Positions 169 through 16,091 of a DNA stretch of 17,345 nt are shown here, piece by piece. A model generated the notes under the pieces. That model was given only the letters and a program-made list of their open reading frames with translations. It ran no database searches and was not told where the DNA came from. Position 1 is the stretch's first letter; the number at the start of each line of letters is the position of its first letter. Origin of the DNA: a virus (taxonomy: Duplodnaviria > Heunggongvirae > Uroviricota > Caudoviricetes); the IMG/VR virus record IMGVR_UViG_2690316028_000014, positions 1 through 17,345 of that record, one strand, 5' to 3'. Both the position numbers and the translations under genes were made by a program.

Positions 169-171
169 AGG

Positions 172-764: not shown

Positions 765-765
765 C

Positions 766-1056
766 TCATTCCCCCTTCACGCCAATGCCAGCGGCGCGGA
801 GTGCTTCTATGAAAACATCAAGCCCCTGATTAAATCCGATAGCCTCATAAAACTGTTTTGTGTGCATGTCCGGTGAATTGCGATATTCGGGCAGCTTCAC
901 CGTCCGCGCCTCCAGTTCTGCTATGCGCTTCTCTGCGGCTTCCAGCTCATCCAGCAGCGCCAGTAAATCGCGAGTTGGTACCATGAAGTTCGGCATGAAG
1001 TTATCTTTTGCCTTTTCTGCTGTTAGGCGCAGCGCCTGTTTGTCGATGTTGCTCAT
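766..1056 (-). CDS. Hypothetical phage protein (96 aa, predicted coiled-coil segment)
   Basis: ORF-track ORF; ATGA start/stop overlap with the upstream gene; LLALLDELEAAEKRIAELEAR heptad-like stretch. Confidence 0.55.
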   Translation of the reverse strand: MSNIDKQALRLTAEKAKDNFMPNFMVPTRDLLALLDELEAAEKRIAELEARTVKLPEYRNSPDMHTKQFYEAIGFNQGLDVFIEALRAAGIGVKGE

Positions 1057-1559
1057 TGCGCGTCCCCCTTGCGAATCTGGGCGGCGATGTCTTCGAGTAC
1101 ACCATCAGCGAACGAGCGATCGAAATCGCCTTCCGGCGCATCATCCATAAACTCTGTGGAGGTCAGTATCATTCGTGCGATGTCCGCAGCGTTCTTCGCT
1201 GTGTCTTCGATAAACCCAGCCTCCCATGCAGCCAGCATTCGGTTGGCAACAAAGTGAGCGCCTTCCTTGTGGGCTTGCGCCCGCACTTCAGCCAGGAAAG
1301 CCTGGTACGCAGGAATCTGCAGCACAGCCAGAGCTCCGATAATCTTCTGTACTTCTGGATGGCATTGATCGTAATGAGCATCGGTGATGAACACCGCGTC
1401 ATTGTGAATTGCTTCAATTGCACTCAACTCCGCAGCCAGCGCCGCGCACTTGGCTTCAACCACGTTAAGGAGAGTCGTAACTTCTGCCGGTGACATATGC
1501 TCACCACAATCGGCATTCATCCTGGCGCTTTTAATCAGATCTTCGTATTTATTGCTCAT
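1053..1559 (-). CDS. Hypothetical phage protein (168 aa)
   Basis: Track ORF 1053..1616 trimmed to the internal ATG at 1557-1559, which overlaps the upstream stop (ATGA) and is preceded by GGGGGAGGG; no family recognised. Confidence 0.55.
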   Translation of the reverse strand: MSNKYEDLIKSARMNADCGEHMSPAEVTTLLNVVEAKCAALAAELSAIEAIHNDAVFITDAHYDQCHPEVQKIIGALAVLQIPAYQAFLAEVRAQAHKEGAHFVANRMLAAWEAGFIEDTAKNAADIARMILTSTEFMDDAPEGDFDRSFADGVLEDIAAQIRKGDAQ

Positions 1560-1900
1560 ACCCCTGCCCTCCCCCAAACCATCAATACTCGCTTCATCGC
1601 CGCGCTGTTGCGGCACTCCTGGCAGATCACGTTTGCCTCTGTACGCTGCACCAGCTTCGAATTTCCCTTCGGCATAGCCGGGATTGTTTCTGGTGCGTAT
1701 TTCATGCCGTAATCGGTCAGCCGATAAAGCCGCTGTCCGTGCTTGCCTTCGAACTCGATCAGGCCGTCTGCCAGCAGCGTGCTTAACGGGCCGGAAATCT
1801 TTTTGGTGGTCATGCCGATCATCCTGGCAATGAAAGCACTATTCAGGCCCGGGTTATTACGCAGGGCTGCAAGAATCTGCCCACGAATTGTTATGGTCAT
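1556..1900 (-). CDS. Putative winged-helix DNA-binding protein (114 aa)
   Basis: Track ORF 1556..1948 trimmed to the ATG at 1898-1900, which overlaps the DnaC-like stop (ATGA) and is preceded by AAGGGGG; N-terminal LNSAFIARMIGMTTKKISGPLSTLLADGLIE resembles wHTH regulators; C-terminal CQEC. Confidence 0.5.
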   Translation of the reverse strand: MTITIRGQILAALRNNPGLNSAFIARMIGMTTKKISGPLSTLLADGLIEFEGKHGQRLYRLTDYGMKYAPETIPAMPKGNSKLVQRTEANVICQECRNSAAMKRVLMVWGRAGV

Positions 1901-2769
1901 GCTGCCCCCTTGGAACGGTAAGAATCCCAGGTGAATGACAGCGTGCACCCGCCGCCGTCGCTCATGCGGTCAATAACACGCTCACTCACGAACGCTGCCA
2001 GTTCTTCTTTGGTCTGGTTGCTGATCAGGATGGTCGGCTTCATACGCTCATAACGGGTGTTGATGATTTCGAACATGATCAGCTTCTCGGCCTCGCTGCC
2101 GAACTGGACGCCAACTTCGTCGATGATCAAAAGGTCCGGAGTGGTGAAGTGCGCAATCACGTCGTTCTCGCAGCGCGTCGCTGTTTTCGACCACGTTGAT
2201 TTGAATTCGCGGGCAATCTTCAGCGCGGTGGTGAAAATTACCGGGCTCTGGTGGTTCTCGATGACATAACGGGCGATCGCCAGGGCGAGGTGGTTTTTAC
2301 CGGTTCCCGGCTTGCCGCACATCACCAGGCCACCACCCTGCTTCAGGCGCTCTGGCCACTTCGCGGCATACGCCTGGCAAACCCGCAGCGCGCGCTCTGA
2401 CTCCTTCCCCACCGGCTGATAGCTTTCCAGCGTGCACGTTACAAAGCGCTCAGGGATTTCGAGCTGGCGCAGCAGGCGATCGATGTTCTGCTGGCGCGTG
2501 CGGTCTTCCCACCGCTTTTTCTCGTCATACAGGAAGGTCAGCTCATCGCGAAGGCAGCCCGGACAACGAGTCGGCGGTGACGGCAGCTTGATCAGGCTGC
2601 TGGTAAGCACGCGTTTACGCTGTTCGTACTCGCCATGTTTCTCGCAAAGCACTGTTTCGAAGACGGTCTCGCAGTTAGGGAGCTGCTCTGGAGGTCTACC
2701 AAGGACTTCCAGCATTTTTTCGATAGCGTCGATTTTTTCGAGCAGTTCCATACTCAGTCCCTCGCCCAA
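1897..2769 (-). CDS. DnaC/IstB-like AAA+ helicase loader (replication protein, lambda P position)
   Basis: Walker A GKPGTGKNHLA and Walker B LLIIDEVG; N-terminal Cys pairs; lies immediately downstream of and overlapping the O-like initiator. Confidence 0.85.
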   Translation of the reverse strand: MGEGLSMELLEKIDAIEKMLEVLGRPPEQLPNCETVFETVLCEKHGEYEQRKRVLTSSLIKLPSPPTRCPGCLRDELTFLYDEKKRWEDRTRQQNIDRLLRQLEIPERFVTCTLESYQPVGKESERALRVCQAYAAKWPERLKQGGGLVMCGKPGTGKNHLALAIARYVIENHQSPVIFTTALKIAREFKSTWSKTATRCENDVIAHFTTPDLLIIDEVGVQFGSEAEKLIMFEIINTRYERMKPTILISNQTKEELAAFVSERVIDRMSDGGGCTLSFTWDSYRSKGAA

Positions 2770-3608
2770 GATGGAATTTCAGTCTGGCCATAGTCCTTGC
2801 CAGCGAAGTTCTCAGATACGCGAGACTGATTGCGGGCTGGCTGCTTGATGCCTTTCGGCTCAAACAATCCCTGCCAGCCGTTCGCAATGCTCTGGTTGAT
2901 GATTTCTTCAGGCTGATATCCGCTGCACTTGCAACGCTCGAGCAGGTTGATGGCCTGGGTAACCGTCTGCTGAGACTTGATCGGTTTCTTCAGGTCGCGA
3001 CGATAATCGACCCATGACTTCCAGACTGAAACTGACAGCCATTCAGGAAGCTCAACACCGGCCGGATCGAACGAAGCCGGTTTGGGGGATTTAGGGGGTT
3101 TATTAATATTGTCTTTATTGTCTTTTGTATGTTTGTCTTTTGTGTTTACCTGATTTGGGTAAGTGTCGTTACCTGATTCGGGTAAACATTTCTTACCTGA
3201 TACGGGTAAATTTACCTCTTTCAGGTAAACTTTGTTTTCGTTACCTGATTTGGGTAATTTCACCCATTCGCTGACCGATTTGTTAATGCCCACAGTTCGC
3301 CCGATTTGGGTAAACACCCCGCGCCTGACTAACGCACTTTTAGCCGCAGAGCATTTGTGTGGGAGGATTCCGGTCAGGGCAGATAACTGATCATTGCTTA
3401 CCCAGTCCGCCTTTTTGTTGAAACCGTATGTTTTGCGCATTACTGCCATGAAGACCAGCAGCTGATGCTGAGACAATCCAGCCAGCATGACAGCCTCCAG
3501 AAGTTCATTGGCGATGCGCGTATAGCCATCATCAAGATCTGCCACGCGCGGCTCCTTAGGTGCCACGTCAGGCACAGGGAAATTGATTACTTCGGCAGTG
3601 TTTGCCAT
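2754..3608 (-). CDS. O: Replication initiator, lambda O-like
   Basis: N-terminal region (ANELLEAV...LSQHQLLVFMAVMRKTYGFNKKADWVSNDQLSALTGI...KCSAAKSALVRRGV) matches the lambda O N-terminal domain family; iteron array and AT-rich tract lie inside the gene as in lambda; RBS GGAG before the ATG at 3606-3608. Confidence 0.85.
   Translation of the reverse strand: MANTAEVINFPVPDVAPKEPRVADLDDGYTRIANELLEAVMLAGLSQHQLLVFMAVMRKTYGFNKKADWVSNDQLSALTGILPHKCSAAKSALVRRGVFTQIGRTVGINKSVSEWVKLPKSGNENKVYLKEVNLPVSGKKCLPESGNDTYPNQVNTKDKHTKDNKDNINKPPKSPKPASFDPAGVELPEWLSVSVWKSWVDYRRDLKKPIKSQQTVTQAINLLERCKCSGYQPEEIINQSIANGWQGLFEPKGIKQPARNQSRVSENFAGKDYGQTEIPSWARD
3146..3313. repeat. Replication origin iterons (ori-lambda-like) inside the O-like gene, with adjacent AT-rich tract at about 3100-3145
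   Basis: Five to six copies of an internally palindromic 17-mer TTACCTGATNNGGGTAA at 3146-3162, 3169-3185, 3193-3209, 3212-3228 (degenerate), 3241-3257 and a partial copy at about 3299-3313; flanked by ttattaatattgtctttattgtcttttgtatgtttgtctttt. Confidence 0.7.
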
Positions 3609-3611
3609 AAT
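3583..3611 (+). promoter_or_regulatory. Candidate sigma70 promoter antisense to the O start (possible OOP-like antisense RNA promoter)
   Basis: TTGATT (3583-3588), 17-bp spacer, CATAAT (3606-3611) on the plus strand, reading into the cII-O intergenic hairpin at 3645-3677. Confidence 0.3.
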
Positions 3612-3690
3612 TGCTCCTGTGAATTGATCCAGTTAATTCCATCTGAAAGCCGTTGGTGTTACAGCACCGCGGCTTTCGCCCATTCTGCGT

Positions 3691-3912
3691 TCATGCTTCA
3701 AAATCTCCCTTCGCTCCATCCCGGTTAGAAATCAGGATGGCCAGCAGCAGCGACATGTTCGGTACCAGGCTCTCCTGCCAGCGGCTTACGGTTGATTTAT
3801 TTCTGCCAGCAACTTCAGCTATACGTGATATCCCCAGATCAGATATCTGGCTGCGTAACCAACTCTCTATCCTCCTAGCCTCCAATTTGTTGCGTGCGGT
3901 TGATGTCTCCAT
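3691..3912 (-). CDS. cII: CII-like transcriptional activator
   Basis: 73 aa; RIESWLRSQISDLGISRIAEVAGRNKSTVSRWQESLVPNMSLLLAIL parallels the lambda CII HTH core as recalled; RBS AGAGGAAG; located downstream of cro. Confidence 0.75.
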   Translation of the reverse strand: METSTARNKLEARRIESWLRSQISDLGISRIAEVAGRNKSTVSRWQESLVPNMSLLLAILISNRDGAKGDFEA

Positions 3913-3950
3913 TTGCGATACTTCCTCTGATTTAATTGGTTATGCCGCCA

Positions 3951-4184
3951 TTAGGCGGCGTTGTTGTCGATCGGTGATGGGAACAGCGTCGGTAAGTCAG
4001 GGCGAATCTGGTAGGCCTGAATTTCACCACCAGTTGCTTTCACGATGCTGTTCACATGCTCCGGAGAAACCTTTGCTTTGTTGTGTAGCCACTTGTAAAC
4101 CGCCTGCTGCGATACTGCGCATGCTTCACCAAGGGCTTTTTGAGACCCGACGATGGTAATGGCGGTTTTAATGGTTGGATTCAT
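3951..4184 (-). CDS. cro: Cro-like HTH repressor
   Basis: 77 aa HTH protein (QKALGEACAVSQQAVYKWL) transcribed divergently from cI across an operator-rich intergenic region; RBS GGAGG. Confidence 0.7.
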   Translation of the reverse strand: MNPTIKTAITIVGSQKALGEACAVSQQAVYKWLHNKAKVSPEHVNSIVKATGGEIQAYQIRPDLPTLFPSPIDNNAA

Positions 4185-4288
4185 AACAACCTCCGTAGTG
4201 AATATAAATGAAGAATAAAACTATGGTTGTATTTAGTCAACAACCATTTTCGTTTGATGAAATAAAACCACGGTTGTAGATTGCGTAT
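4185..4288. promoter_or_regulatory. Immunity switch (OR-like): back-to-back pR-like and pRM-like promoters with ACAACC/GGTTGT operator repeats
   Basis: 25-bp palindrome ATGGTTGT-N9-ACAACCAT at 4223-4247; further ACAACC/GGTTGT copies at 4187-4192 and 4273-4278; minus-strand promoter TTGACT (complement of 4235-4240), 17 bp, TATTCT (complement of 4212-4217); plus-strand TTGATG (4254-4259), 17 bp, TAGATT (4277-4282) ending 6 nt before the cI ATG with no SD. Confidence 0.6.
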
Positions 4289-5014
4289 ATGAAAACGACA
4301 CTCGCTGAAAGACTGAAGGAAGCCAGGACATTACGAGGCCTTACACAAAAGGCTCTCGGGGATCTGGTTGGGGTAAGCCAAGCTGCTATCCAGAAGATAG
4401 AAACGGGAAAAGCTAACCAGACAACAAAGTTGGTAGAGCTGGCAAATGCTTTGATGGTTAAACCTGAATGGCTAAGTTCAGGTGTTGGCCCCATGCGATC
4501 AGACGCTAAAGAATCAAATATTGGTCCTGAATCAGAGTGGGGAACTGTCGACGCATGGGACAAAAACACCCCGCTTCCTGCTGACGAGGTTGAAGTGCCT
4601 TTTCTTAAGGATATTGAATTTGCTTGTGGCGATGGACGCGTTCAATGCGAGGATCACAATGGCTTTAAGCTCAGGTTCTCAAAGGCAACCCTCCGACGCG
4701 TTGGAGCTAATACAGATGGGTCTGGCATCCTGTGCTTCCCTGCTACTGGCGACAGTATGGAACCCGTAATACCGGATGGTACGACTGTAGCCGTCGATAC
4801 GAACAACAAACGCATAGTTGATGGGAAACTGTATGCCATTGGTCAGACAGATGGCGGGAATGGTCAACTCAAGCGCATTAAACAGCTGTATCGTAAGCCA
4901 GGCGGAAAGCTAATTATCCGCAGCTACAACAATGAGGCCTACCCTGATGAAGAAGCTGACATTGATGATGTTGAGATAATCGGCCGCCTCTTCTGGTACT
5001 CGGTATTGCTGTAG
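4289..5014 (+). CDS. cI: CI-type prophage repressor (HTH_XRE N-domain plus S24 LexA-like peptidase C-domain)
   Basis: N-terminal HTH (LTQKALGDLVGVSQAAIQKIETGK); C-terminal GDSMEP with Ser156 and Lys195/198 at lambda-CI-like spacing; candidate Cys113-Gly114 autocleavage site. Confidence 0.9.
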   Translation: MKTTLAERLKEARTLRGLTQKALGDLVGVSQAAIQKIETGKANQTTKLVELANALMVKPEWLSSGVGPMRSDAKESNIGPESEWGTVDAWDKNTPLPADEVEVPFLKDIEFACGDGRVQCEDHNGFKLRFSKATLRRVGANTDGSGILCFPATGDSMEPVIPDGTTVAVDTNNKRIVDGKLYAIGQTDGGNGQLKRIKQLYRKPGGKLIIRSYNNEAYPDEEADIDDVEIIGRLFWYSVLL

Positions 5015-5118
5015 CGGTGGCCTGAAGAGACGTTTGGTTAAGGCCAGCAACGGATCACAACAAACACATGGGGCGGCGGATTAAGGGTGATGGAGAATCG
5101 AAATAAGTTGAGGTCAAC

Positions 5119-5274
5119 ATGAACACGTTCAGCATAATCGCGATACCTTTTTTTGCCCTTTCAGTGGTTCTGTTGACTCTTGGCGCTACCAGGAAGAACC
5201 AAGCCAGCTTCATCGTTGGCGGCGTGTTTATGGCGTCATGCGTGGTTAATGCCATTATCGGCATGTCTCTTTGA
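5119..5274 (+). CDS. Small hydrophobic membrane peptide (51 aa, two predicted TM segments)
   Basis: ATG at 5119 with GAGG 5 nt upstream; MNTFSIIAIPFFALSVVLLTLGATRKNQASFIVGGVFMASCVVNAIIGMSL; below the ORF-track size cut-off; about 100 bp downstream of cI. Confidence 0.4.
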   Translation: MNTFSIIAIPFFALSVVLLTLGATRKNQASFIVGGVFMASCVVNAIIGMSL

Positions 5275-5466
5275 GCGCTATGAGATCAGGCATCCTCGTT
5301 ACTTTGTCATGTGTGACAGCCTGGTATGCACTCTGCGAGCTTTGATGTGGTTTACCACTTTAATAGTCACCGTATCACTAAACTGATTAGCTTTACTCAT
5401 ACTCTTGTGGATTCGCTATTTCTGATGTCAATGCAAAAAAATACTAAGGAAACAAAAAGGATACTT

Positions 5467-5733
5467 ATGTCAGATAACACTATTAAAATCATACCTCAGC
5501 ACATGACCGCCACATCAGTTCTTATTACGCCTGATCGTGCTGAAACAATCATTACTTTTTACCGCCATGAATTTGAGCATCACATGCAGTCTGATGAGCA
5601 AGGAAAGAATAGCTTCCAAGTAAAAGTTGAGTTGACCCCTAACATGTCAGTCTCAATGAGCCCGGATCAAGCTGTTGCATTAGTAAAATCATTACAGGTA
5701 GCTCTCAGGGATAATGGGCTATGGAAAGACTGA
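5467..5733 (+). CDS. Hypothetical protein (88 aa) in the AT-rich cI-adjacent island
   Basis: Track ORF 5326..5733 trimmed to the ATG at 5467 preceded by AAAAAGGA; visibly AT-rich coding sequence; no recognised family. Confidence 0.5.
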   Translation: MSDNTIKIIPQHMTATSVLITPDRAETIITFYRHEFEHHMQSDEQGKNSFQVKVELTPNMSVSMSPDQAVALVKSLQVALRDNGLWKD

Positions 5734-6371
5734 AGCCAGTTTCTTCAGTTCAACCTACCTCAGGAACAACATCATCAGTTCTTCCAAGTATTATAGTTAG
5801 TGCAACCCTAGCAGCGACAACCGTTTCTCCTTATGGGGATCCATCTCAGTACCAAAGTATTGGTATTGATGCTAAGGTATCAAATAGAGTTTCATACGCC
5901 ATGGACGAAACGGGTTTGCGCCCAAGTAAGGAAGATGTAGCGATGAAGAGTGATACCCTGGAGGTAAGCGTGAGCGGAATGTCCAGAGAAGAACTTGACG
6001 CAAAGCTTTCACAAAACAAATCAGAGGTAGAGTCTATTGCTGCGGAAATGCGTCGCGAATCAGCTGACTTTAAAACCTATTATACTCAGCAATTTTCTTC
6101 TATTGAGAGAGGTATTGCTGAAATTAAAGGTGAAATCGGCGGTTTGAAAACGGGACTTACAACGACTCAGTGGGCGATGGCCGTTGGCTTGACTTTAGTT
6201 ACTGTGATTCTGTCTGGCGTGATGTTAGCCTCAAGTTGGATTATCTCCGGCAATGACAAGTCACCATCAGTAACCAGCCCGGCTCCAATTATAATACAGG
6301 TACCGACACAGCAACCATTAACGAGCGCTCCAACTAACCAATCGTCATCACAACAAGCTCCTAAGCAATAA
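5721..6371 (+). CDS. Membrane-anchored protein (216 aa): S/T-rich N-region, coiled-coil, C-terminal TM helix, S/T/Q/P-rich tail
   Basis: Long open frame in AT-rich DNA; start overlaps the upstream stop by 13 nt; alternative internal start at about 5944 with strong RBS TAAGGAAG; TM segment WAMAVGLTLVTVILSGVMLASSWII; followed directly by a terminator. Confidence 0.6.
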   Translation: MERLKPVSSVQPTSGTTSSVLPSIIVSATLAATTVSPYGDPSQYQSIGIDAKVSNRVSYAMDETGLRPSKEDVAMKSDTLEVSVSGMSREELDAKLSQNKSEVESIAAEMRRESADFKTYYTQQFSSIERGIAEIKGEIGGLKTGLTTTQWAMAVGLTLVTVILSGVMLASSWIISGNDKSPSVTSPAPIIIQVPTQQPLTSAPTNQSSSQQAPKQ

Positions 6372-6376
6372 ATAAA

Positions 6377-6403
6377 CCCGGCCACCGCGCCGGGTTTTTA
6401 TTT
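6377..6403. terminator. Bidirectional Rho-independent terminator
   Basis: CCCGGC-cacc gc-GCCGGG hairpin (6377-6394) followed by TTTTTATTT on the plus strand and preceded by AAATAAATAAA (U-tract for the minus strand); ends both the plus-strand island and the minus-strand 68-aa ORF. Confidence 0.75.
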
Positions 6404-6604
6404 GCCCTTCCGTACCATCTCAGCCGCATCCCGTAGCACCCCCTTGTGGATCACGTTCCCGACGGCTTTACGCTTCCCTTCCAGAAATCCCACAATGTTG
6501 TCTTTGTTGATCTCAATCCCGTTGTAAATCAGTTCGAACACCACACACCCAACCTCTCCAGCCATGAAGGCCATCCGGTCATCTGCAAGTTCATCACGTT
6601 CCAT
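6398..6604 (-). CDS. Hypothetical protein (68 aa), convergent with the cI island
   Basis: Track ORF 6398..6958 trimmed to the ATG at 6602-6604 with GGGGGTGG upstream; E. coli-like codon choice; the longer N-terminal extension runs through AT-rich promoter DNA and is rejected. Confidence 0.5.
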   Translation of the reverse strand: MERDELADDRMAFMAGEVGCVVFELIYNGIEINKDNIVGFLEGKRKAVGNVIHKGVLRDAAEMVRKGK

Positions 6605-6688
6605 AGCCACCCCCTGATGTTTTTTGCAGCATAGCACCAATCTTTTATAAAAATAAATTCCTTTTAAATACAACCAAATAAAACCAAA

Positions 6689-6742
6689 ACAACTATAAAT
6701 ACAACTATTGTTGTTGACGATAAAACAACTATGGTTTTTAAT
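6689..6742 (+). promoter_or_regulatory. OL/pL-like operator-promoter cluster driving the early-left (recombination-int) operon
   Basis: Three direct ACAACTAT copies at 6689, 6701 and 6725 (12- and 24-bp phasing) plus an inverted GTTGTTG; promoter TTGACG (6714-6719), 17 bp, TTTAAT (6737-6742); shares CTATGGTT with the OR region. Confidence 0.5.
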
Positions 6743-7287
6743 AAGTCCATCGAAACGAAACATCGACAGCTGAGCGAAGTTAGCCAGCGGCGGACAGCAA
6801 GTCGCCTGCTTCTTTAACAAATCAGACTGAGTGACAGGCAAGCCGTAGCTCTCCTGGCAAAAAGAAATGGCACCCGATGGGATCGAGGTAAGCACTGAGT
6901 CCGTATGCGTACGGTAGGTGTAGAGGACCACGCTGCGATGAGCTGATAAGTCACTCAATTTGAAGCGCTCCGATGATGGGGCGCTGATTCAACTTAGAGG
7001 AGTGATTCCAATGAAGAACTAAAGCGGACAGACCGCAGCCTAAAGGCAATGCAGCAGTAATGATGCCGCCCTGAGTCGCCGAATGGCGAGCCTGTGTAGT
7101 GATGGGTCAAGGTTCTTATATCAAAACAAGCTCCGGTAAAGCAGCGCGAACGCCAGACGCGCACCGGTTATGAGCGGCGATGAGCGACAAGGTCTCAAGG
7201 GCATGTGCGCGGCCACTGCGAGAGTGTGGCGAAGTTTACCAGCAGCTCTTTGCGAGGGGCTGACGGTAAACAAAAAGAGGAGTGTGT

Positions 7288-7629
7288 ATGGCAGATAAAA
7301 AAACGGCGCCACTACTGCTTAACGTAGACGCCAGCGAGGTACTTACTCAGACCGGGGAGCTTTTAAAGTTACTTGAACTTCCAGCCAGTTCCTTTCAGGG
7401 AATTCCTGAGCATGTCGTCGATCTGTTTTTTGACCGTGTCCGTGGCCTGATTGACAACATCGTCCTTAGTGATTTCTCGACCACAGTCAGCACAACTGAC
7501 GCCGGTGAAATTTGTCTCAAAGTCAAAATCATCGGGCTGGTTGAACATCTCACTTCCGCAGTCAGGGCACACGGTCCGCATGGTTTGCATGAATATATCC
7601 TTTCTACTGTTGGGGAGATTAAAGAGTAA
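7288..7629 (+). CDS. Hypothetical protein (113 aa), first ORF of the early-left operon; mutually exclusive with the antisense zinc-ribbon ORF
   Basis: Strong RBS GAGGAG 5 nt before the ATG at 7288; on the strand transcribed from the pL-like promoter; Leu codons mostly CTT/TTA, so it could be a shadow of the minus-strand ORF. Confidence 0.35.
   Translation: MADKKTAPLLLNVDASEVLTQTGELLKLLELPASSFQGIPEHVVDLFFDRVRGLIDNIVLSDFSTTVSTTDAGEICLKVKIIGLVEHLTSAVRAHGPHGLHEYILSTVGEIKE
7369..7590 (-). CDS. Candidate zinc-ribbon protein (73 aa), antisense to the 7288-7629 ORF
   Basis: CPDCG-(19 aa)-CADCG four-Cys motif; RBS AAAGGA 7 nt before the ATG at 7588-7590; host-preferred codons; the Arg-rich N-terminal extension in the track (to 7821) is rejected. 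Confidence 0.35.
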   Translation of the reverse strand: MQTMRTVCPDCGSEMFNQPDDFDFETNFTGVSCADCGREITKDDVVNQATDTVKKQIDDMLRNSLKGTGWKFK

Positions 7630-7848
7630 GCGATTTCTTGCTGTTGGGGAATAGCGGGAAAGCGCGCGCCGGGCGCGGATAAATACCCCGGCACTAACTG
7701 GAATGTTTTGGGCTGGCAGACGGTTATCAGCTAGTTGGTGAGGTAATGGCTCACCAAGGCGACGACGGCCTTCCCTGCTGCTTGAAAGCGGGGAGCCAGC
7801 ACCAAAACATTTCTCCCGCATCAGCGGGTAACGACAGAGGGTAAGGGT

Positions 7849-8094
7849 ATGTCAGATAAGCAGGTTCAACTGTCTGGTAAATGCGTCTTGAAGATAGACA
7901 CCATCAAAGGCAGCAGCACTATCGAAATACCAAAAGTGAATCTCAGCGGCAAAAACAATGCAGACGCTTTGCTTAATGAAGTGTTCCATTTTGGAGTAAT
8001 GCGTCACGGGAAAAACAAGCTTCGCGAAATGCTTGAAGAGAAGCTTGATGGCTACGGGGAAGAGTACGAAAACCATGGCCTCACTTACGACTGA
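7849..8094 (+). CDS. Hypothetical early protein (81 aa, acidic C-terminus)
   Basis: RBS AGAGGGTAAGGG before the ATG; immediately followed by an intrinsic terminator. Confidence 0.6.
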   Translation: MSDKQVQLSGKCVLKIDTIKGSSTIEIPKVNLSGKNNADALLNEVFHFGVMRHGKNKLREMLEEKLDGYGEEYENHGLTYD

Positions 8095-8115
8095 CCCGCT
8101 CCGGCGGGTTTTTTA
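8095..8115 (+). terminator. Rho-independent terminator (tL1-like)
   Basis: CCCGC-tccg-GCGGG hairpin followed by TTTTTT; a second hairpin GGCAGA-N8-TCTGCC follows at 8129-8148. Confidence 0.7.
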
Positions 8116-8255
8116 TCGGCCATACATAGGCAGATTTTCGAGTCTGCCCATTTATGACAACCGGCGGCCATCCACCGCCCATTGAAACACTGAATAAATG
8201 CGTTGAAGTCTTGTATTAACCGTTCCGTTCGCCGCGATAAGGCCAAGAGGAAATC

Positions 8256-8384
8256 ATGGTAAACCAGCAGCAGATCAGAGAGGCCCAACGGCTCGCGTCG
8301 TTCGCGGTGCTCCATCGCAATGCTCCGGCGTGGGAAGAAGCAATACGCCTTTACGCCGTCGCCATCGGGAGGACTCTTCACTGA
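8256..8384 (+). CDS. Small ORF (42 aa), translationally coupled to the downstream gene
   Basis: ATG at 8256 with GAGGAA just upstream; stop TGA overlaps the next ATG (TGATG at 8382-8386); MVNQQQIREAQRLASFAVLHRNAPAWEEAIRLYAVAIGRTLH. Confidence 0.3.
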   Translation: MVNQQQIREAQRLASFAVLHRNAPAWEEAIRLYAVAIGRTLH

Positions 8385-8581
8385 TGGAAACTTTATTCGC
8401 ACTCGTCCTGACCGTGGCAATGACCAACGGTGATTATCAGGATGTCATTCTCGGCGTTTACGACAGCCAGCAGGAATGCAGCCTGGCAGCTACAGAGCAG
8501 AAAGTGTCAGCTGAGTGCTGGCCGGTAGAAAGCATCATCCGCAACGGCGAGTTCCCGGCGAAATCCATCGCGCAGCAGTAA
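8384..8581 (+). CDS. Hypothetical small protein (65 aa; hydrophobic N-terminus, acidic)
   Basis: Track ORF 8330..8581 trimmed to the ATG at 8384; METLFALVLTVAMTNGDYQ...; occupies the position lambda uses for kil/cIII-type genes. Confidence 0.5.
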   Translation: METLFALVLTVAMTNGDYQDVILGVYDSQQECSLAATEQKVSAECWPVESIIRNGEFPAKSIAQQ

Positions 8582-8651
8582 CCACCCTATTCAACCGATC
8601 GGCCTGGCTCAATGCGGGCGGGATCTGCACATCCAAATTTCAGGAGAAACC

Positions 8652-9620
8652 ATGAGCGAAGTAACGGATTTAGTCGTCATTGAGAAACAGAACGCAATGG
8701 CGGTGTTTACCAGTAAGGAACAGCTCGATCCGATTATCGAGGCCATCGAGAAAGAAGCTCGTACCCTGGTACCCGATCTGACTACGAAGAAAGGTCGCGA
8801 CGCGATCGCATCCATGGCGCATAAGGTTGCCCGCTCCAAAACCTATATCGACAACGCCGGCAAGGATCTGGTTGCCGAGCTTAAAGCCCTGCCGAAGCAG
8901 ATCGACGAAAGCCGCCGCATTGTGCGTGAGCGGCTGGACGCGCTGAAGGATGAAGTACGGCGCCCGCTCACAGAATGGGAAGCCGAGCAGGAACGCATTA
9001 AGGCTGAAGAAGCCATGAACGCGATGCACGCCGAAGCGCTGGAGATGAACATCAGGTTCGATCAGGAGCTGGCTGCCAAGTTCGAAGCGGACCACGAAAT
9101 GGCCCTGCTGATGAACAAGGATTTCGACCGTGACCGCGAAGAGCAGCGCCGCCTGGCGGAACAGGCTCAACGCGAGCACGAAGAGCGCATTAAGCAGGAA
9201 GCAGCTGACAAAGCCAAGCGCGAAGCCGAAGAGAGGCATAAAGCGGAATTGGATGCTGCAGCACGTCGCGAAGCTGATGAGAAAGCTCGCGCTGATGCCG
9301 CCGAGCGTAAGCGCAAAGAAGATGCTGACCGTGCAGAACGTGAGAAGCAGGACGCAATCGCAGAAGAAAAACGCAAAGCGCAGGAAGAAGCAGATCGCAT
9401 CAAGCGCGAAGCTGAAGCTAAAGAGAAAGCCCGTCTGGCCGAAGAGCAGCGCAAAGTTGAAGAAGAAGCGCGCCGCGCCGCAGACAAAGAGCACCGCCGC
9501 ACCGTCAACCGTCGCGTCATCGCCGACCTTATAGCTCAGGGCATCCCCGAAGAATTCGCGCAGAAAGCACTGCTGGCGATCGCTGGCGGCAAAGTGCAGG
9601 ACGCGCACATCAAATATTGA
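8652..9620 (+). CDS. Phage protein with conserved-looking N-domain and a long ER/K-rich charged helix (322 aa)
   Basis: RBS AGGAG; about 170 aa of E/R/K/A-rich sequence (KAEEAMNAMHAEALE...EEKRKAQEEADRIKREAEAKEKARLAEEQRKVEEEARR); the antisense track ORF 8670..9644 is a shadow. Confidence 0.8.
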   Translation: MSEVTDLVVIEKQNAMAVFTSKEQLDPIIEAIEKEARTLVPDLTTKKGRDAIASMAHKVARSKTYIDNAGKDLVAELKALPKQIDESRRIVRERLDALKDEVRRPLTEWEAEQERIKAEEAMNAMHAEALEMNIRFDQELAAKFEADHEMALLMNKDFDRDREEQRRLAEQAQREHEERIKQEAADKAKREAEERHKAELDAAARREADEKARADAAERKRKEDADRAEREKQDAIAEEKRKAQEEADRIKREAEAKEKARLAEEQRKVEEEARRAADKEHRRTVNRRVIADLIAQGIPEEFAQKALLAIAGGKVQDAHIKY

Positions 9621-9627
9621 GGCAACC

Positions 9628-9912
9628 ATGAACGCATACCTCACTTATGACCGCATCGAAGATCGGCGCTGGGCTGAACAGCAGCTCACCGACGAGAAAG
9701 AGAAGTGGATCGACGACCGGGCGCAACAAATCATCGACATGATGCCAAAAGAGCCGTCCGGCCTCTTCCACTTCTCCGTACCGATTGACGCCAGTCCATA
9801 CGAAGGACTTCGCAGCGATAAAGCTGGCGAGGCCTACAACGATTTCATTTCGGCAGTTGCTTACGCCCAGGCGGAATACGACTGGGAACACCGTACCGGC
9901 TGCCCATTTTAA
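9628..9912 (+). CDS. gam: Gam-like RecBCD inhibitor
   Basis: 94 aa; MNAYLTYDRIEDRRWAEQQLTDEKEK...LFHFSVPID parallels the lambda GamS N-terminus as recalled ([30 protein letters not shown]...LFESLCID); sits immediately upstream of bet. Confidence 0.8.
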   Translation: MNAYLTYDRIEDRRWAEQQLTDEKEKWIDDRAQQIIDMMPKEPSGLFHFSVPIDASPYEGLRSDKAGEAYNDFISAVAYAQAEYDWEHRTGCPF

Positions 9913-9930
9913 TTTTTGAGGGGATTAACG

Positions 9931-10776
9931 ATGGCAAACGAATTAACAATCACAGCGACGTCGCTTCAGGAGATAGGCGTCGACGTCTCCACCTGGAGCG
10001 CGCTGAAGAACAGCATCTATCCTGGCGCCAAAGACGAATCGGTAATGATGGCGCTTGACTACTGCCGCGCCCGCCATCTGGATCCGTTGCTCAAACCTGT
10101 CCACCTCGTTCCGATGTACGTCAAAGACTCGAAAACAGGTAAAGGCGAATGGCGCGACGTCGTCATGCCGGGCATCGGACTTTACCGCATTCAGGCAGAC
10201 CGCTCCGGCGATTATGCCGGGGCTCGCGAGCCCGAGTTCGGGCCCGACGTAACTCAGACGCTTACTGGTGTCGAGGTGACCTTCCCTCAGTGGTGCAAAT
10301 ACACCGTTTTCAAGCGCATGCCCAGCGGCGAGATCGTCGAGTTCAGCGCTAAAGAATACTGGATTGAAAACTACGCCACCGGCGGACGTGACACCACGGC
10401 GCCGAACGCGATGTGGAAAAAACGCCCGTATGGACAGCTGGCGAAATGCGCAGAAGCCCAGGCGTTGCGCAAGGCATGGCCTGAGATTGGACAGCAGCCT
10501 ACTGCAGAAGAAATGGAAGGCAAATCGCTGGACGTTGATATTCGTGACGTCACCCCGCGCAGCACCACAGAAGCGCTTCCACCAGCAGCAAGCGAAGAAA
10601 CACTTCAGGCGATCACCGATCTCTTAACATCGCTGAATAAAGACTGGGAGCAAGACTTCCTCCCAGTGTGCAGCGACATCTTCAAACGGCCAATTCTTGA
10701 GGCGTCAGACCTCACTGAAGAAGAGGCACAGAAAGGGTTCAACTTCCTTCAGAAAAAAGCTAAGGCGGCAGCATGA
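9931..10776 (+). CDS. bet: Bet/RecT-family single-strand annealing protein
   Basis: C-terminus [40 protein letters not shown] parallels the lambda Beta C-terminus as recalled; start set at the ATG at 9931 (RBS GAGGGGA) rather than the track TTG at 9916; followed by exo with ATGA overlap. Confidence 0.85.
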
Positions 10777-11453
10777 CACCCGAAATTATCCTGGCCAGGA
10801 CCGGCATTGATGTGTCCACCGTAGAGCAAGGTGATGAAGCATGGGCCAAATTAAGGCTCGGAGTTATCACCGCCTCTGAAGTGCACAACGTAATATCCAA
10901 GCCGCGCTCCGGCACCAAATGGACGGGCATGAAGATGTCCTACTTCCACACCCTACTCGCCGAGGTATGCACCGGCGTCGCGCCAGAGGTTAACGCCAAG
11001 GCTCTGGCCTGGGGAAAGCAGTACGAGGAAGACGCCCGCACCCTCTTCGAGTTCACCACCGACGTGAAAGTCACGGAGTCTCCGATCCTGTTCCGTGACG
11101 AGAGCATGCGCACCGCGTGCTCCCCTGACGGCCTTTGCAGTAACAATTTCGGCCTCGAATTGAAATGTCCGTTCACCTCCCGCGACTTCATGAAATTCCG
11201 CCTCGGCGGTTTCGAAGCCATTAAGTCAGAGTACATGGCCCAGGTGCAGTACAGCATGTGGGTGACCGGGAAAGAAGCCTGGTTCTTTGCCAACTACGAC
11301 CCGCGCATGAAACGCGAAGGTATTCACCACGTCGTCGTTGAGCGGGATCCGCAGTACATGACCGATTTCAACGAAATGGTGCCGGAGTTCATTGAGAAGA
11401 TGGACGAGGCGCTGGCGGAAATCGGCTTCACGTTCGGGGAGCAGTGGAAATGA
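10773..11453 (+). CDS. exo: YqaJ/lambda-Exo-like recombination exonuclease
   Basis: 226 aa, called by its position as the partner immediately downstream of bet, with ATGA translational coupling at both ends; family assigned from this context and general sequence character, not from verified motifs. Confidence 0.8.
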
Positions 11454-11878
11454 AACGCGCACCCTTTTACCGCAGGCCAGGGCGAACCTGGCAATTCTCT
11501 GGCCTCCGTGAGCGCGTTATCTGGATGATTCAGACGCGAGGCCGCCCGGTAACCGGTAGCGAAATCGCTGAGAAGTTTGGCGTAACCCTGATCGAGTTTA
11601 ACCGGGTCGCCAACGGCATCACCCGCGGCTCCGGACAGATAGCTCAGATCGTTGAGTCGGAAAAATGGCTCAACGAGGACGGCATCTGCGACCGGACATT
11701 TGACCTGGTAACGAAGCCAAAGGTCATTACACCGCAGGGAAAATCACGGCTATTCACCCGGCGCGCCATTGAGCAGTCGCAGGAAGGCAGACGGCAGGAA
11801 TGCATTGAACGTGCAGCACGCCGTCGCCGCCTGATTGCTCAGGGCCTCTACATCGACGAAATGGAGTCCATCCTATGA
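11450..11878 (+). CDS. Hypothetical protein (142 aa)
   Basis: ATG at 11450 overlaps the exo stop; in-frame GTG at 11444 is the track start; possible HTH-like segment ([22 protein letters not shown]). Confidence 0.6.
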
Positions 11879-12027
11879 CTCACGCTCACGACGACATCAG
11901 GGTAGGCACATTGTGCCTTCCCTTCATTGGTCACGGCTGGCTAATGCCATGGGGTGAAGTGGTCAGCAATCCATTAAAGGCGCAGCGGCTCGCTGAGGAA
12001 TATCGGGAAAGGCAGGAGGCGGCATGA
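11875..12027 (+). CDS. Small ORF (50 aa) coupled at both ends (ATGA/ATGA)
   Basis: ATG at 11875 overlaps the upstream stop and its own stop overlaps the methyltransferase ATG at 12024; GGAG 8 nt upstream; [50 protein letters not shown]. Confidence 0.35.
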   Translation: MTHAHDDIRVGTLCLPFIGHGWLMPWGEVVSNPLKAQRLAEEYRERQEAA

Positions 12028-14216
12028 AATACGGAAGCGTGTGCAGCGGCATAGAAGCTGCCAGTAAAGCGTGGGAACCTCTCGGCTGGAAACCTGCCTG
12101 GTTCTCTGAAATCGAACCATTCCCCTCAGCCGTCCTCGCCCATCACTGGCCGGAAGTAACCAACCTCGGCGACATGACCAAAATCGCCGATGCGGTCCGC
12201 GCTGGTGATGTCGAAGCGCCTGATGTTCTGGTCGGTGGTACGCCCTGCCAGGCATTCAGCATCGCCGGCTTACGCGAAGGCCTGTCTGACGACCGCGGGC
12301 AATTAACTCTTTCTTACGTGGAATTAGCCAATGCAATCGACACAAAGCGCCGCGAACTCGGTGAACCAGAATCAATCATCGTCTGGGAAAACGTCCCCGG
12401 CGTGCTCAGCAGCAAAGACAATGCCTTCGGGTGCTTTCTGGCAGGGCTTGCCGGAGAAAGCAGTGAGTTGCAGCCAGCAGGGGGAAAATGGACGCACGCA
12501 GGTTGTGTGTCTGGACCAGAAAGGGTTATCGCCTGGCGCGTCCTTGATGCTCAATTTTTCGGAGTGGCCCAACGACGCCGACGTGTGTTCGTTGTCGCAA
12601 GTGCTCGAAAAGGATTCGATCCCGCAGCGGTACTTTTTGAGTTCGACAGCGTGCGCCGGGATTCTGCGCCGCGCCGAGAAACGCAAAAGGCTGTTGCCGC
12701 CCTTACTGCACGAGGCGTTGGAACGTGTGGCGCAGACGACAACCAGGCACAAGCTGGACATCTGATTGCTTTTGGCGGTGGCAATACTACCGGCCATATT
12801 GATGTGGCGACCGCCTGCACCGCGCATGGGATCAGATTGGATTTTGATACTGAGACTTTCGCAGTGCACGGCACGCAGGATCCAGATACCAATTGCGAAC
12901 TGGCGCATACACTTGGGCGAAACAACGGACAAGAAAACGCCTGCATCGCATTTAGCTACAAAGATAATGGCGCTGATGCGACGTCGGATTTATCGCCAAC
13001 GATTCGCGCAGGAAACCACGATAAAAGCCATGCCAATAGCGGCCAGCCGCCAGCTATAGCGTATGCATTCAAGGCCGGACAGGGTGCTAAAGCGGGTGGC
13101 ATTGGTTACGCGGAAGAGCAATCACCGACATTAACCAGCGCCAGCAGCGGAACCAATCTTGCACCAGCGGTAATGCATGGCGTGGCAGTTCGACGACTTA
13201 CGCCAATTGAGTGCGAGCGGCTTCAGGGCTTTCCTGATAGTCACACTCTGATCGGCTGGCGCGGGAAGGACGCTGATGAATGCCCGGACGGGCCACGTTA
13301 TAAAGCTATCGGCAATAGCATGGCAGTACCGGTTATGCGTTGGATTGGTGAGCGCATCGCCGCTGCGCTTCCAGTCGAAGAGCCTGCACCGCGCAACTGG
13401 CAGCGCCCGTTCCTTAAATGGGCTGGCGGCAAATATTCGCTGCTGCCGGAACTGGATCGCCTGATCCCCGCAGGGAAACGCCTTATTGAGCCTTTTGTGG
13501 GTGGCGGCTCGGTGTTCCTTAACTCAGACAAGCACGAACGCTTTCTTCTGGCTGACGTCAACGCTGACCTGATTAACCTGTATCAGATGCTGGCGGTGGT
13601 CCCAGACTCGGTGATCTATGAAGCAATGAAGGCGTTCAGGCATCTGAATGATGCCGAAAACTACACGGAAATTCGTGAAGCATTCAACGCGCAGCGGCTG
13701 GATGCGGTTGAGCGCGCAGCAGCATTCCTTTACCTCAACCGGCACTGCTTCAACGGCCTGATCCGTTACAACCTGGACGGTTTTTTTAACGTCGGCTTTG
13801 GGAAATATAAAGCGCCATATTTCCCGGAAGAAGAGATCAGGGCATTTAAGCGGAAGGCTCACTCATGCGTATTCATGAATGCAGGCTTCAGGCGCACGCT
13901 CGCACTGGCTGGTGATGGTGACGTCATTTACTGCGATCCGCCCTATGAACCGCTTCCCGGCACCGCTGGTTTCACTAACTACGCGGCTGGTGGGTTCTCA
14001 TGGGATAGCCAGGTAGAGCTTGCGGAAAGCTGTGTGGCAGCCCACCAGCGGGGGGCAAAAGTGGTAATCAGCAATTCTACCGCACCGCGCGTAATTGAAC
14101 TTTACAAACAGCACGGCTTCACTCTGCACCGCGTAAGTGCTCGCCGCGCTATATCCAGCAAAGGCAGCACCCGCGAAACAGCGAGTGATGTCGTAGCCAC
14201 TTTGGGAGTGCAGTGA
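12024..14216 (+). CDS. Fused DNA methyltransferase: N-terminal C5-cytosine MTase (Dcm-type) plus C-terminal Dam-like N6-adenine MTase
   Basis: C5-MTase motifs SGIEAAS (I), GGTPCQAFS (IV), VWENVPG (VI), QRRRVFVVA (VIII), RRLTPIECERLQGFPD (IX), GNSMAVPV (X) within about aa 1-450; then KWAGGKYSLLP, EPFVGGGSVF and DPPY in about aa 455-730; single uninterrupted 730-codon frame with RBS AGGAGG. Confidence 0.85.
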   Translation: MKYGSVCSGIEAASKAWEPLGWKPAWFSEIEPFPSAVLAHHWPEVTNLGDMTKIADAVRAGDVEAPDVLVGGTPCQAFSIAGLREGLSDDRGQLTLSYVELANAIDTKRRELGEPESIIVWENVPGVLSSKDNAFGCFLAGLAGESSELQPAGGKWTHAGCVSGPERVIAWRVLDAQFFGVAQRRRRVFVVASARKGFDPAAVLFEFDSVRRDSAPRRETQKAVAALTARGVGTCGADDNQAQAGHLIAFGGGNTTGHIDVATACTAHGIRLDFDTETFAVHGTQDPDTNCELAHTLGRNNGQENACIAFSYKDNGADATSDLSPTIRAGNHDKSHANSGQPPAIAYAFKAGQGAKAGGIGYAEEQSPTLTSASSGTNLAPAVMHGVAVRRLTPIECERLQGFPDSHTLIGWRGKDADECPDGPRYKAIGNSMAVPVMRWIGERIAAALPVEEPAPRNWQRPFLKWAGGKYSLLPELDRLIPAGKRLIEPFVGGGSVFLNSDKHERFLLADVNADLINLYQMLAVVPDSVIYEAMKAFRHLNDAENYTEIREAFNAQRLDAVERAAAFLYLNRHCFNGLIRYNLDGFFNVGFGKYKAPYFPEEEIRAFKRKAHSCVFMNAGFRRTLALAGDGDVIYCDPPYEPLPGTAGFTNYAAGGFSWDSQVELAESCVAAHQRGAKVVISNSTAPRVIELYKQHGFTLHRVSARRAISSKGSTRETASDVVATLGVQ

Positions 14217-14458
14217 TGATGAAGCTGATTAATCGCAGTAAGCAATCACCTATTGGTCGCCGCGCTTGCGATGTTGCGCTGGCGGCGCACCACGCAAAAT
14301 ATGGCGATTACGGCAGGCAGAAGCACCAGACAAATTACACCGTTGAGGTGGATGGCATGAAGGTCACCGTCGAAGTCGTCAACCGGGCCACCAGCTATGT
14401 CGCCACAGCAATGATCGGCGTTCGTAAACTTCGAAACCTGCCAGCACAGGCACACTGA
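14216..14458 (+). CDS. Hypothetical protein (80 aa)
   Basis: ATG at 14216 overlaps the methyltransferase stop (TGATG); GGGAG 8 nt upstream; track start at 14213 is an in-frame GTG. Confidence 0.55.
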   Translation: MMKLINRSKQSPIGRRACDVALAAHHAKYGDYGRQKHQTNYTVEVDGMKVTVEVVNRATSYVATAMIGVRKLRNLPAQAH

Positions 14459-14499
14459 ATAACAATGACGGCCCCGACTGGGGCCACTGGAGAACATCG

Positions 14500-14847
14500 A
14501 TGGACGAAGAAGTATTTACCAGAGATGAGGCCGCCGCCTTCCTTAAAGTGGATAAAGGCACGATTGCCCAGTGGATAAAGTCCGGTCGCCTGGCTGCTAC
14601 CCGAAAAAATCCACATAAGAAAAAAAGCCCATACCTGATCTGCAAAACAGACTGTATTGCGGCAGTGAAGAACCCGATCCACAATCAACCTGTGAATGCG
14701 GTTGATGTGCAGGAGGATAAAGCATGTCAATCAAACAACGTGCCGGTACGTGGCACTGCGACTTCGTTACGCCTGGTGGAAGTCGAATTAGACGGTCTCT
14801 TGGGACAACGGACAAAAGGCAAGCGCAGGAGCTCTATGATCAGCTGA
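14500..14847 (+). CDS. xis: Excisionase (Xis/AlpA-type HTH)
   Basis: N-terminal [26 protein letters not shown] matches the excisionase-family HTH; directly upstream of int, overlapping its start by 124 nt in another frame. Confidence 0.6.
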
Positions 14848-15887
14848 AAGCTGAAGCATGGCGAGTTGATAAGATGGGGGAGTTTAAGCCGCGAACGTTC
14901 GATGAAGCGTGCGTTCGCTGGCTTAACGAAAAGCAGCACAAGAAAAGCCTGGACGATGACAAAAGCCGGATCGGATTCTGGAGGATGCACTTCAAAGGAA
15001 TGGACCTGTCAGCAATCACGGAAGACAGGATCTTGTCGGCGGTGAGTTCGATGGTTAATCGCAAACATCGAATGAACTGGGAGGCTAAACGGGACAGCCT
15101 GCTGCGAAGAGGTAAGCCGGTTCCTGAATTTAAGGATAAACCAGCGTCGCTGGCGACGAAGGCGACGCACCTTGCTTTCATCCGGGCGCTGTTACGATGC
15201 GCGGCCAACGAATGGCGATGGATAGCCAAAGCGCCGAACATCAAATGCCCGGTGCCGAAAAATAAGCGTATTCGCTGGCTAACCAAAGAGGAAGCGGCGA
15301 ACCTGATCCGGGAGCTTCCCGAGCATATGAAGCCAGTTGTTATTTTTGCACTGGCGACAGGGCTGCGCAGATCGAACATCACCGATCTGGAGTGGTCACA
15401 AATTGATATGCAGAGGAAGGTCGCGTGGATTCACCCCGAGGACGCGAAAGCAGGAAGGGCGATTGGGGTCGCCCTGAACGAATCGTCCTGTAAGGTGCTG
15501 CGGGAGCAACTGGGGAAACATAACCGTTGGGTCTTTGTTCACACTGAATCATCCGTTCGCCCGGATGGAACGAGAACAAAGGCAGTGCGCAAAATGCGGT
15601 CTGATGCTAACACGGCATGGCGCGCGGCGTTAAGGCGGGCGGGAATAGAAAATTTCCGCTTCCATGACCTGCGGCACACCTGGGCAAGCTGGCTTGTACA
15701 GTCCGGCGTGCCACTCAGTGCGCTACAGGAAATGGGCGGGTGGGAAAGTATCGAGATGGTGCAGCGTTATGCGCATCTGGCACCGAATCACCTGACGCAG
15801 CATGCCATGCAAATCGACTCATTCCTGGCGGGGAATGGCACAAATATGGCACAAGGCGCTTTTGCTGAACTGGTGAATATCGCGTGA
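14724..15887 (+). CDS. int: Tyrosine integrase (P22-like)
   Basis: 387 aa; RBS AGGAGG; catalytic signature [15 protein letters not shown] ... VQRYAHL (R-H-R-Y family); ends 15 bp from the tRNA-Thr 3' end. Confidence 0.9.
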
Positions 15888-15901
15888 ACCCGCGTGGTTA
15901 G

Positions 15902-15977
15902 TGGTGCCGATAAGAGGAGTCGAACCTCCGACCTTCGCATTACGAATGCGCTGCTCTACCAACTGAGCTATATCGGC
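15902..15977 (-). tRNA. thrW: tRNA-Thr (anticodon CGU)
   Basis: Reverse complement reads GCCGATATAGCTCAGTTGGTAGAGCAGCGCATTCGTAATGCGAAGGTCGGAGGTTCGACTCCTCTTATCGGCACCA: 7-bp acceptor stem, D-loop AGCTCAGTTGGTAGAGC, anticodon loop TTCGTAA, T-arm GGTTCGA, encoded CCA. Confidence 0.9.
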
Positions 15978-16091
15978 CCTGAAAGGACATGTTCACGAAC
16001 GTGAATCACGGTGGACAAGGTTAAAACTAACCGGGCGATGCGTCAATGGCCTTGTGAATCAAATGGCTACTTTTGCATCACCCGGTTTTAT

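Follow-up and report, generated by a model that had tools for sequence, protein, structure and literature searches.

Kil of bacteriophage lambda, a peptide of 47 amino acids (aa) that belongs to PF06301 and matches phrog_3924, phrog_2055 and phrog_2461, is a ZipA-dependent inhibitor of FtsZ ring assembly (PMC3961180, PMC11762379). Its published model consists of a helix (residues 4–18), a turn at G19–D20 and a second helix (21–38); deletion of either helix or of the turn abolishes activity, and nearly all lambda Kil homologues carry a polar or basic motif, RSK or RSSK, after helix 2 (PMC11762379). Kil peptides attract study both as natural inhibitors of FtsZ and as antibacterial leads, and the family as currently recognised is narrow. 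Here we examine a candidate addition to it in a 17,345-nucleotide (nt) stretch of DNA from a tailed phage of the class Caudoviricetes (IMG/VR record IMGVR_UViG_2690316028_000014, positions 1 to 17,345; hereafter the window). In this window, a 42-codon open reading frame (ORF; positions 8256–8384, plus strand), encoding the divergent lambda-Kil-like peptide MVNQQQIREAQRLASFAVLHRNAPAWEEAIRLYAVAIGRTLH, overlaps the start of a 65-aa DUF1482 gene (8384–8581, plus strand).

We read the segment 8256–8581 as a two-gene cassette of the leftward early operon – a divergent Kil-family peptide and a DUF1482 gene coupled to it – and give this reading a probability of about 60%. Its parts differ in strength: the 42-codon frame is almost certainly a real gene, membership of its product in the Kil family is likely on sequence comparison, and inhibition of FtsZ by the peptide is an analogy with lambda that we somewhat favour. 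The Kil kind itself is known; neither the 42-aa subfamily nor its tight pairing with DUF1482 was described in the literature searched.

Three described systems invite comparison. Like the window peptide, lambda Kil is small, is modelled as a hairpin with the turn at the same place, ends in [KR]-[ST]-[IL]-H and is encoded in the leftward early operon just upstream of gam, bet and exo (cIII–kil–gam–bet–exo in lambda; Kil-like, DUF1482, Agt-like, GamL, Bet, Exo in the window). The window peptide differs in its turn (H-R-N versus G-D), in the absence of the lambda WILILKL segment and RSSK motif, and in the overlap of its gene with DUF1482 – a predicted coupling to a gene that lambda lacks. A second group is formed by the Kil proteins of 92–98 aa from Escherichia coli and Enterobacter prophages (e.g. 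WP_096191184.1, BY63), which occupy the same slot with the same 1-nt overlap onto DUF1482, and whose C-terminal 38 residues align with the window peptide without gaps and share its GR(S/E/T)LH ending. These proteins are extended at the N-terminus by a domain of about 55 residues (phrog_6396), whereas the window peptide is the hairpin alone, and they pass the Pfam threshold for Kil, whereas the window peptide does not. Finally, the KilR-type proteins (the 68-aa or so 'Kil' of phi80, HK225 and HK639) are positional analogues: they share the slot, an identical leader and the first 14 bases of the gene, but are 68 aa long, are not coupled to DUF1482 and show no similarity to the 42-aa peptide past the first four residues.

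Kil-like sequence, predicted fold and genomic slot

One link to Kil comes from the comparison of families rather than single sequences. Aligned by hhalign, 18 members of the 42-aa family and 11 Kil-domain sequences – lambda Kil, an HK629-type peptide, a lambda-like peptide of 42 aa from locus L249 and the C-termini of the 92–98-aa proteins – matched end to end and gap-free with a probability of 97.4% (E = 1e-11). Trimming six residues from the C-terminal end on both sides left a match of 92.9% (E = 3.6e-7), and none of 300 column shuffles reached this score. The Kil-domain intermediates themselves pass the PF06301 gathering score (46 and 30 bits against 27.6) and are linked to lambda Kil at 94.5% by profile comparison.

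Two individual sequences point the same way. In E. coli BY63, a 98-aa protein annotated as 'host cell division inhibitory peptide Kil' occupies the same slot, overlapping DUF1482 by 1 nt; its residues 64–86 match PF06301, and its C-terminus aligns with the 42-aa peptide at 29% identity over 38 residues (BLASTP, no gaps, E = 5e-4). The family member P0120, which is 62% identical to the window peptide, matches phrog_2055 ('Kil protein for bacterial septation inhibition') at 5.8e-5, the same model that lambda Kil matches at 2e-6.

The predicted structure is consistent with this kinship. An AlphaFold2 (AF2) model of the peptide, built with the family alignment, reached a predicted local distance difference test score (pLDDT) of 91.6 and consists of a helix at residues 4–19, a turn at 20–22 and a helix at 23–36. 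The turn falls in register with that of lambda Kil in the profile alignment, and the hairpin core of about 35 residues needed in lambda Kil – helix, turn, helix – is present in the model of the 42-aa peptide. Searched with Foldseek against viral models (BFVD), the model matched small hairpins; the second-ranked match, and the first with a functional name, was 'Kil protein [Serratia phage Eta]' (TM-score 0.84, root-mean-square deviation 0.8). Very different sequences on the same predicted hairpin should be useful for finding the residues that contact FtsZ or ZipA.

A further indication comes from the DNA in front of the gene. From the leader (8152–8255, plus strand) with its Shine–Dalgarno sequence (AAGAGGA, 8245–8251) through the ATG and 11 bases beyond it, the DNA is identical to that of the KilR-type gene in phage HK225 and in E. 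coli YPE10, the identity ending after the fifth codon; the same leader precedes the KilR-type gene in HK225 and in E. coli prophages, and bases 8200–8251 are identical to phi80-derived DNA in laboratory strains, among them DH10B, DH5a and TOP10. The proteins of HK225, phi80 and YPE10 match NF008465 ('FtsZ inhibitor protein') at 1e-16 to 3e-34, a model to which the 42-aa peptide gives no match. An identical leader thus introduces a different gene, and the slot is therefore one that either of two unrelated division-inhibitor families can fill.

DUF1482 and its upstream partners

The second gene of the cassette is a full-length DUF1482 member (PF07358, 85.3 bits against a cutoff of 25, E = 2.5e-24; phrog_1092, 1.2e-28), routinely annotated in E. 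coli relatives by the Prokaryotic Genome Annotation Pipeline (PGAP). Its own Shine–Dalgarno sequence, GGGAGGA (8367–8373, plus strand), lies 10 nt before its ATG, inside codons Gly38–Arg39 of the 42-aa gene. Seven diverged DNA copies of the locus were compared here and below: that of the window and those of loci L004, L005, L006, L012, L014 and L015. Across them, the last six codons of the upstream gene (GGG AGG ACT CTT CAC TGA) show almost no nucleotide change and GGGAGG none at all, whereas synonymous sites elsewhere in the gene are saturated.

This arrangement recurs across the loci sampled. Viral and genome contigs gave 304 DUF1482 loci, reduced to 188 distinct sequences. Of these, 185 have an ORF of at least 30 aa in front whose end runs over the start of DUF1482; the overlap is 1 nt at 174 loci and 4 nt at 11. 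DUF1482 is therefore almost never translated independently. Its ribosome-binding module is the C-terminus of whichever gene precedes it, and re-initiation would be the obvious mechanism for its translation. Partners could be counted at 187 loci, in a sample biased by the four query sequences used. The 42-aa Kil-like family (in which Pectobacterium versions, whose C-termini differ, are counted) accounts for 82, the 92–98-aa Kil-domain fusions for 12 and the lambda-like Kil peptide of 42 aa for 2, bringing Kil-type partners to 96 of 187; a 66-aa family ending in PAGTH (phrog_3722, function unassigned) accounts for 80 and other proteins for 11. The 66-aa protein (…LVPAGTH; locus L008, 2307–2507, also L020, L021 and about 80 viral loci) takes the same operon position and likewise overlaps DUF1482 by 1 nt. 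Kinship of this family with KilR or with the N-terminal domain of the Kil fusions, or of those two with each other, is not supported, hhalign giving probabilities of 3–7%.

From these relationships we infer the following course of events. After induction or infection, the 42-residue hairpin would bind FtsZ as lambda Kil does, disrupt the Z ring and transiently block host cell division. The last six codons of its gene would double as the ribosome-binding region of DUF1482, and ribosomes finishing the peptide would re-initiate there, the two products being made together. DUF1482 may in turn act with or on the upstream product, as its near-obligate coupling to an upstream small gene suggests.

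Several observations weigh against this reading. The peptide has no Lambda_Kil (PF06301) match at E ≤ 0.1 and matches no PHROG and no NCBIfam model; a sub-threshold MIT match was all that direct family searches gave. No BLASTP alignment to lambda Kil was obtained, and the hhalign comparison with lambda-type sequences on their own was not significant (E = 0.09–0.15), so the link to lambda Kil is a transitive one, by way of the Kil-domain fusion proteins. The family profile also retrieved TPR-like repeat proteins, weak MIT and TPR_2 matches were seen, and short alanine-rich helical hairpins resemble one another easily; for so short a query, the Foldseek E-values (0.25) are not significant. After helix 2, GRTLH replaces the RSK/RSSK motif – although it contains an Arg and resembles the terminal K-S-I-H of lambda Kil – and part of the similarity, the C-terminal GRxLH, falls in the ribosome-binding module of DUF1482 and may have been acquired by recombination instead of descent. 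DUF1482 is not specific to Kil, 43% of its genes being coupled to the unrelated 66-aa protein. As for the operon, no N-type antiterminator was recognised upstream of the 42-aa gene, and the label 'early-left operon' rests on synteny, since a simple scan found no promoter upstream.

Taken together, such points lend themselves to another account, in which the peptide and DUF1482 form a two-protein module directed at something other than FtsZ, for example in anti-defence or host takeover, and the likeness to Kil is that of a generic hairpin. The coupling of DUF1482 to at least five unrelated small upstream proteins, the TPR-like matches and the failure of the window sequence against all curated Kil models would all fit, but this account has to set aside a profile match that outscores every shuffle even without the shared C-terminus, a family member with a PHROG Kil match, a DUF1482 coupling identical to that of PF06301-positive proteins and a slot interchangeable with KilR-type FtsZ inhibitors. 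We regard it as unlikely, though it is the most serious of the competing explanations.

That DUF1482 is a dedicated partner of small phage host-takeover peptides, made in a fixed ratio with them and modulating, neutralising or completing their action, is an unlikely but interesting idea, and a built-in brake on Kil toxicity is an equally speculative example of it; if it were true, the 66-aa phrog_3722 family would be a further unrecognised class of division inhibitors or takeover proteins. Coupling to a Kil-type gene in about half of the sampled loci provides the DUF1482 family with its first functional lead. The protein has two invariant cysteines and a predicted small α/β pattern; no relative in the Protein Data Bank (PDB) was found by sequence, the literature search returned no mention of the family, and a single-sequence model (pLDDT 59.9) was too poor for a fold search.

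The RNA around the junction was also considered. RNAalifold predicted pairing of GGGAGGAC with codons 8–10 of DUF1482, which would hide the Shine–Dalgarno sequence. The window fold has z = −0.5, however, and among 120 distinct junctions the mean z is −0.54 and such pairing occurs in 54, which coding constraints can explain; a conserved hairpin occluding the Shine–Dalgarno sequence and ATG of DUF1482, and so making the coupling obligatory, was not demonstrated over these junctions. Rfam yielded no RNA family in the region, its sole match being the tRNA at the attachment site.

Conservation of the 42-codon frame

A first-pass annotation of the window, made from the sequence alone, had drawn attention to three small frames – the 42-codon ORF, the 65-aa ORF behind it and a 50-aa ORF at 11875–12027 – and had described the junctions correctly. 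The first frame runs from ATG at 8256 to TGA at 8382–8384, the last base of the stop serving (in TGATG) as the A of the ATG at 8384 that opens the 65-aa ORF, while the 50-aa ORF shares an ATGA both with the end of the 142-aa ORF before it and with the start of the methyltransferase gene behind it. Good Shine–Dalgarno sequences precede all three starts, the third being a GGAG upstream of 11875.

The argument that coupling of this kind is unlikely by chance does not hold. When a pair was counted wherever the stop of an ORF of at least 40 aa overlapped by 1 or 4 nt an ATG or GTG opening at least 50 codons, the window contained 17 pairs, and 200 first-order-Markov random windows of the same size contained 7.8 ± 3.1, with a maximum of 18. 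Overlaps being frequent in random sequence, the overlap signal alone is weak evidence. The cassette itself is adjoined by what is probably a chance pair: a 46-codon ORF opening with GTG (8515–8655), out of frame over the end of the DUF1482 gene, is joined through ATGA to the 322-aa gene that follows. The status of the small genes is established by conservation and not by the stop/start overlap – a lesson of some generality, since overlap alone is poor evidence for a small gene and conservation of the frame is decisive.

That evidence is strong for the 42-codon ORF. Its frame is the only one open in all seven diverged copies, and over 32 gap-free codons the proportion of non-synonymous differences (pN) is 0.14–0.43 against 0.35–1.0 for synonymous ones (pS), which indicates strong purifying selection. 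pS is at least 0.67 in 20 of the 21 pairs, and most pairs lie beyond Jukes–Cantor correction; between the window and L004, for instance, there are 21.5 synonymous differences over 23.3 sites and 13.5 non-synonymous differences over 72.7 sites. Across ten sequences spanning down to 57% identity, 12 residues are invariant, and both the ORF and its 1-nt overlap are intact in 79 of the 80 closest IMG/VR viral contigs. The check proposed in the first-pass annotation, conservation across relatives, thus comes out in favour of its view that the small frames are genuine: all three are conserved genes in the leftward early region, on the strand of the recombination genes, and two of them, the 65-aa and 50-aa ORFs, are members of established families.

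Such conservation also bears on the possibility that the 42-codon frame is a mere leader ORF that delivers ribosomes to DUF1482, its peptide having no function. The 1-nt overlap, the nucleotide-invariant Shine–Dalgarno sequence within the ORF and the coupling of 98% of DUF1482 genes to something upstream are what this explanation would predict. Ribosome delivery alone, however, would not need the amino acids to be strongly conserved while synonymous sites are saturated, nor the 12 residues to be invariant, and the explanation appears improbable. In locus L015 (4139–4200), moreover, a 46-aa Kil-like gene is intact beside a decayed DUF1482 that lacks its ATG and is truncated after about 15 codons, from which it follows that the peptide gene can persist without its partner.

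Still less plausible – indeed very improbable – is the idea that the 42-codon frame arose by chance, as coupling overlaps often do, and that the real gene is the overlapping antisense ORF of 111 codons (8085–8420, minus strand), whose equivalent in E. coli 1218KP carries a PGAP annotation as a hypothetical protein of 99 aa (WP_488913586.1). Stop codons interrupt the antisense frame in four of the seven diverged copies, which makes it a probable shadow ORF and its annotation a probable error; the sense frame is uninterrupted in every copy and fits the substitution pattern.

Relatives of the 42-aa peptide are numerous. A search of 5.8 billion proteins returned 42-aa sequences at 73–95% identity, and a profile search of 1.8 billion representatives added family members down to 57%. 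The commonest form, named only 'hypothetical', was seen on at least 1000 contigs, most of which belong to the Enterobacter cloacae complex and E. coli. It differs from the window copy at the single residue 30: here the window has Ile (codon 8343–8345, ATA), and Lys is almost universal among the relatives. A collection of 15 billion proteins does not contain the exact window sequence; since the aligned residue of lambda Kil is Val, nothing suggests that the Ile30 copy is defective. Two variants of 58 aa (P0004 and P0008, each from a single Logan contig) shift frame near or before GGGAGG and continue into DUF1482 in a different frame, and may reflect gene decay (pseudogenes) or faulty assembly.

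Despite this abundance, the gene is easily overlooked. In RefSeq, the ORF is unannotated in the two E. coli relatives whose feature tables were read, and in ten further full-length matches the sole feature listed under the match is the DUF1482 gene. Among GenBank phage genomes, tblastn with the peptide gave one marginal match, in BUCT618 (E = 0.03), with no adjoining DUF1482; practically all known members of the family come from prophages and metagenomic viral contigs. A widespread 42-residue subfamily has in this way been missed by current family models and by RefSeq annotation alike.

The surrounding early region

The third small frame, at 11875–12027 (plus strand), is a member of DUF1317 (PF07026, 57 bits against a cutoff of 22.3, E = 1.7e-15; phrog_1998, 1.7e-27) and is 50% identical to lambda orf60a (E = 6e-17). 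It is an ordinary orf60a homologue, coupled into the string of genes that leads from exo to the methyltransferase. As in lambda, it lies downstream of exo and overlaps its upstream neighbour by 4 nt; in lambda this neighbour is exo itself, whereas in the window a 142-aa gene intervenes. The window protein is also ten residues shorter, and is followed by a methyltransferase gene rather than by orf63 and orf61. In L004, L006 and L014, too, the gene order has DUF1317 after the recombination genes. Deletion of lambda orf60a causes a mild change in the lysis–lysogeny decision and in prophage induction (PMC6213356).

The original picture of unknown mini-genes below 60 aa has accordingly to be redrawn. 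Size and status as a sub-60-aa gene are right for the 42-aa and 50-aa ORFs but not for the 65-aa ORF, which exceeds the limit and is routinely annotated, and the 65-aa and 50-aa ORFs belong to curated families. Of the functions suggested for such genes – Kil, cIII or Ral type – the first suits the 42-aa ORF, a remote Kil homologue by profile, predicted fold and position.

The window as a whole is the left arm of a lambdoid prophage. A Cro-like gene (3951–4184, minus strand) is followed by a cI-like repressor gene (4289–5014; HTH_3 and Peptidase_S24), and the three small ORFs lie on the same strand as the genes for this repressor, GamL, Bet, Exo, the Xis-like protein and Int. Between the plus-strand genes after the repressor and a minus-strand ORF of 186 aa with no assigned function stands a perfect 9-bp GC-rich hairpin with T-runs on both strands (6374–6397), resembling a bidirectional terminator.

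Upstream of the cassette, an 81-aa ORF (7849–8094) stands at the position of phi80 gene N, with phi80-like DNA on both flanks. It is followed on the plus strand by a terminator-like hairpin and T-run (8093–8118, the hairpin itself at 8093–8110); this hairpin and the leader behind it align with the post-N region of phi80, at its annotated tL1A terminator. That the ORF is a counterpart of phi80 N could not be confirmed: its product is not similar to that protein (E = 0.064), lacks an arginine-rich motif and matches no family, the likeness to phi80 being limited to the flanking DNA.

Downstream of the cassette, the plus strand carries a 322-aa gene (8652–9620), whose product is 68% identical to a phi80 protein annotated as 'agt, anti-toxin for Gam', then the genes for GamL (9628–9912), Bet (9916–10776) and Exo (10773–11453), the 142-aa gene (11450–11878; phrog_1680, a 'regulator' according to PGAP) and, after the DUF1317 gene, a fused methyltransferase gene of 730 codons (12024–14216; PF00145 and PF02086). 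The methyltransferase joins a C5-cytosine domain (residues 1–194 onward) to a Dam-type N6-adenine domain (466–710). Genes for a DUF4060 protein, an excisionase-like helix-turn-helix protein and the integrase come next. The prophage is integrated at tRNA-Thr next to proA, as indicated by the position of the tRNA-Thr gene (anticodon CGU; 15902–15977, minus strand) directly after the integrase gene, followed by proA (16092–17345, minus strand).

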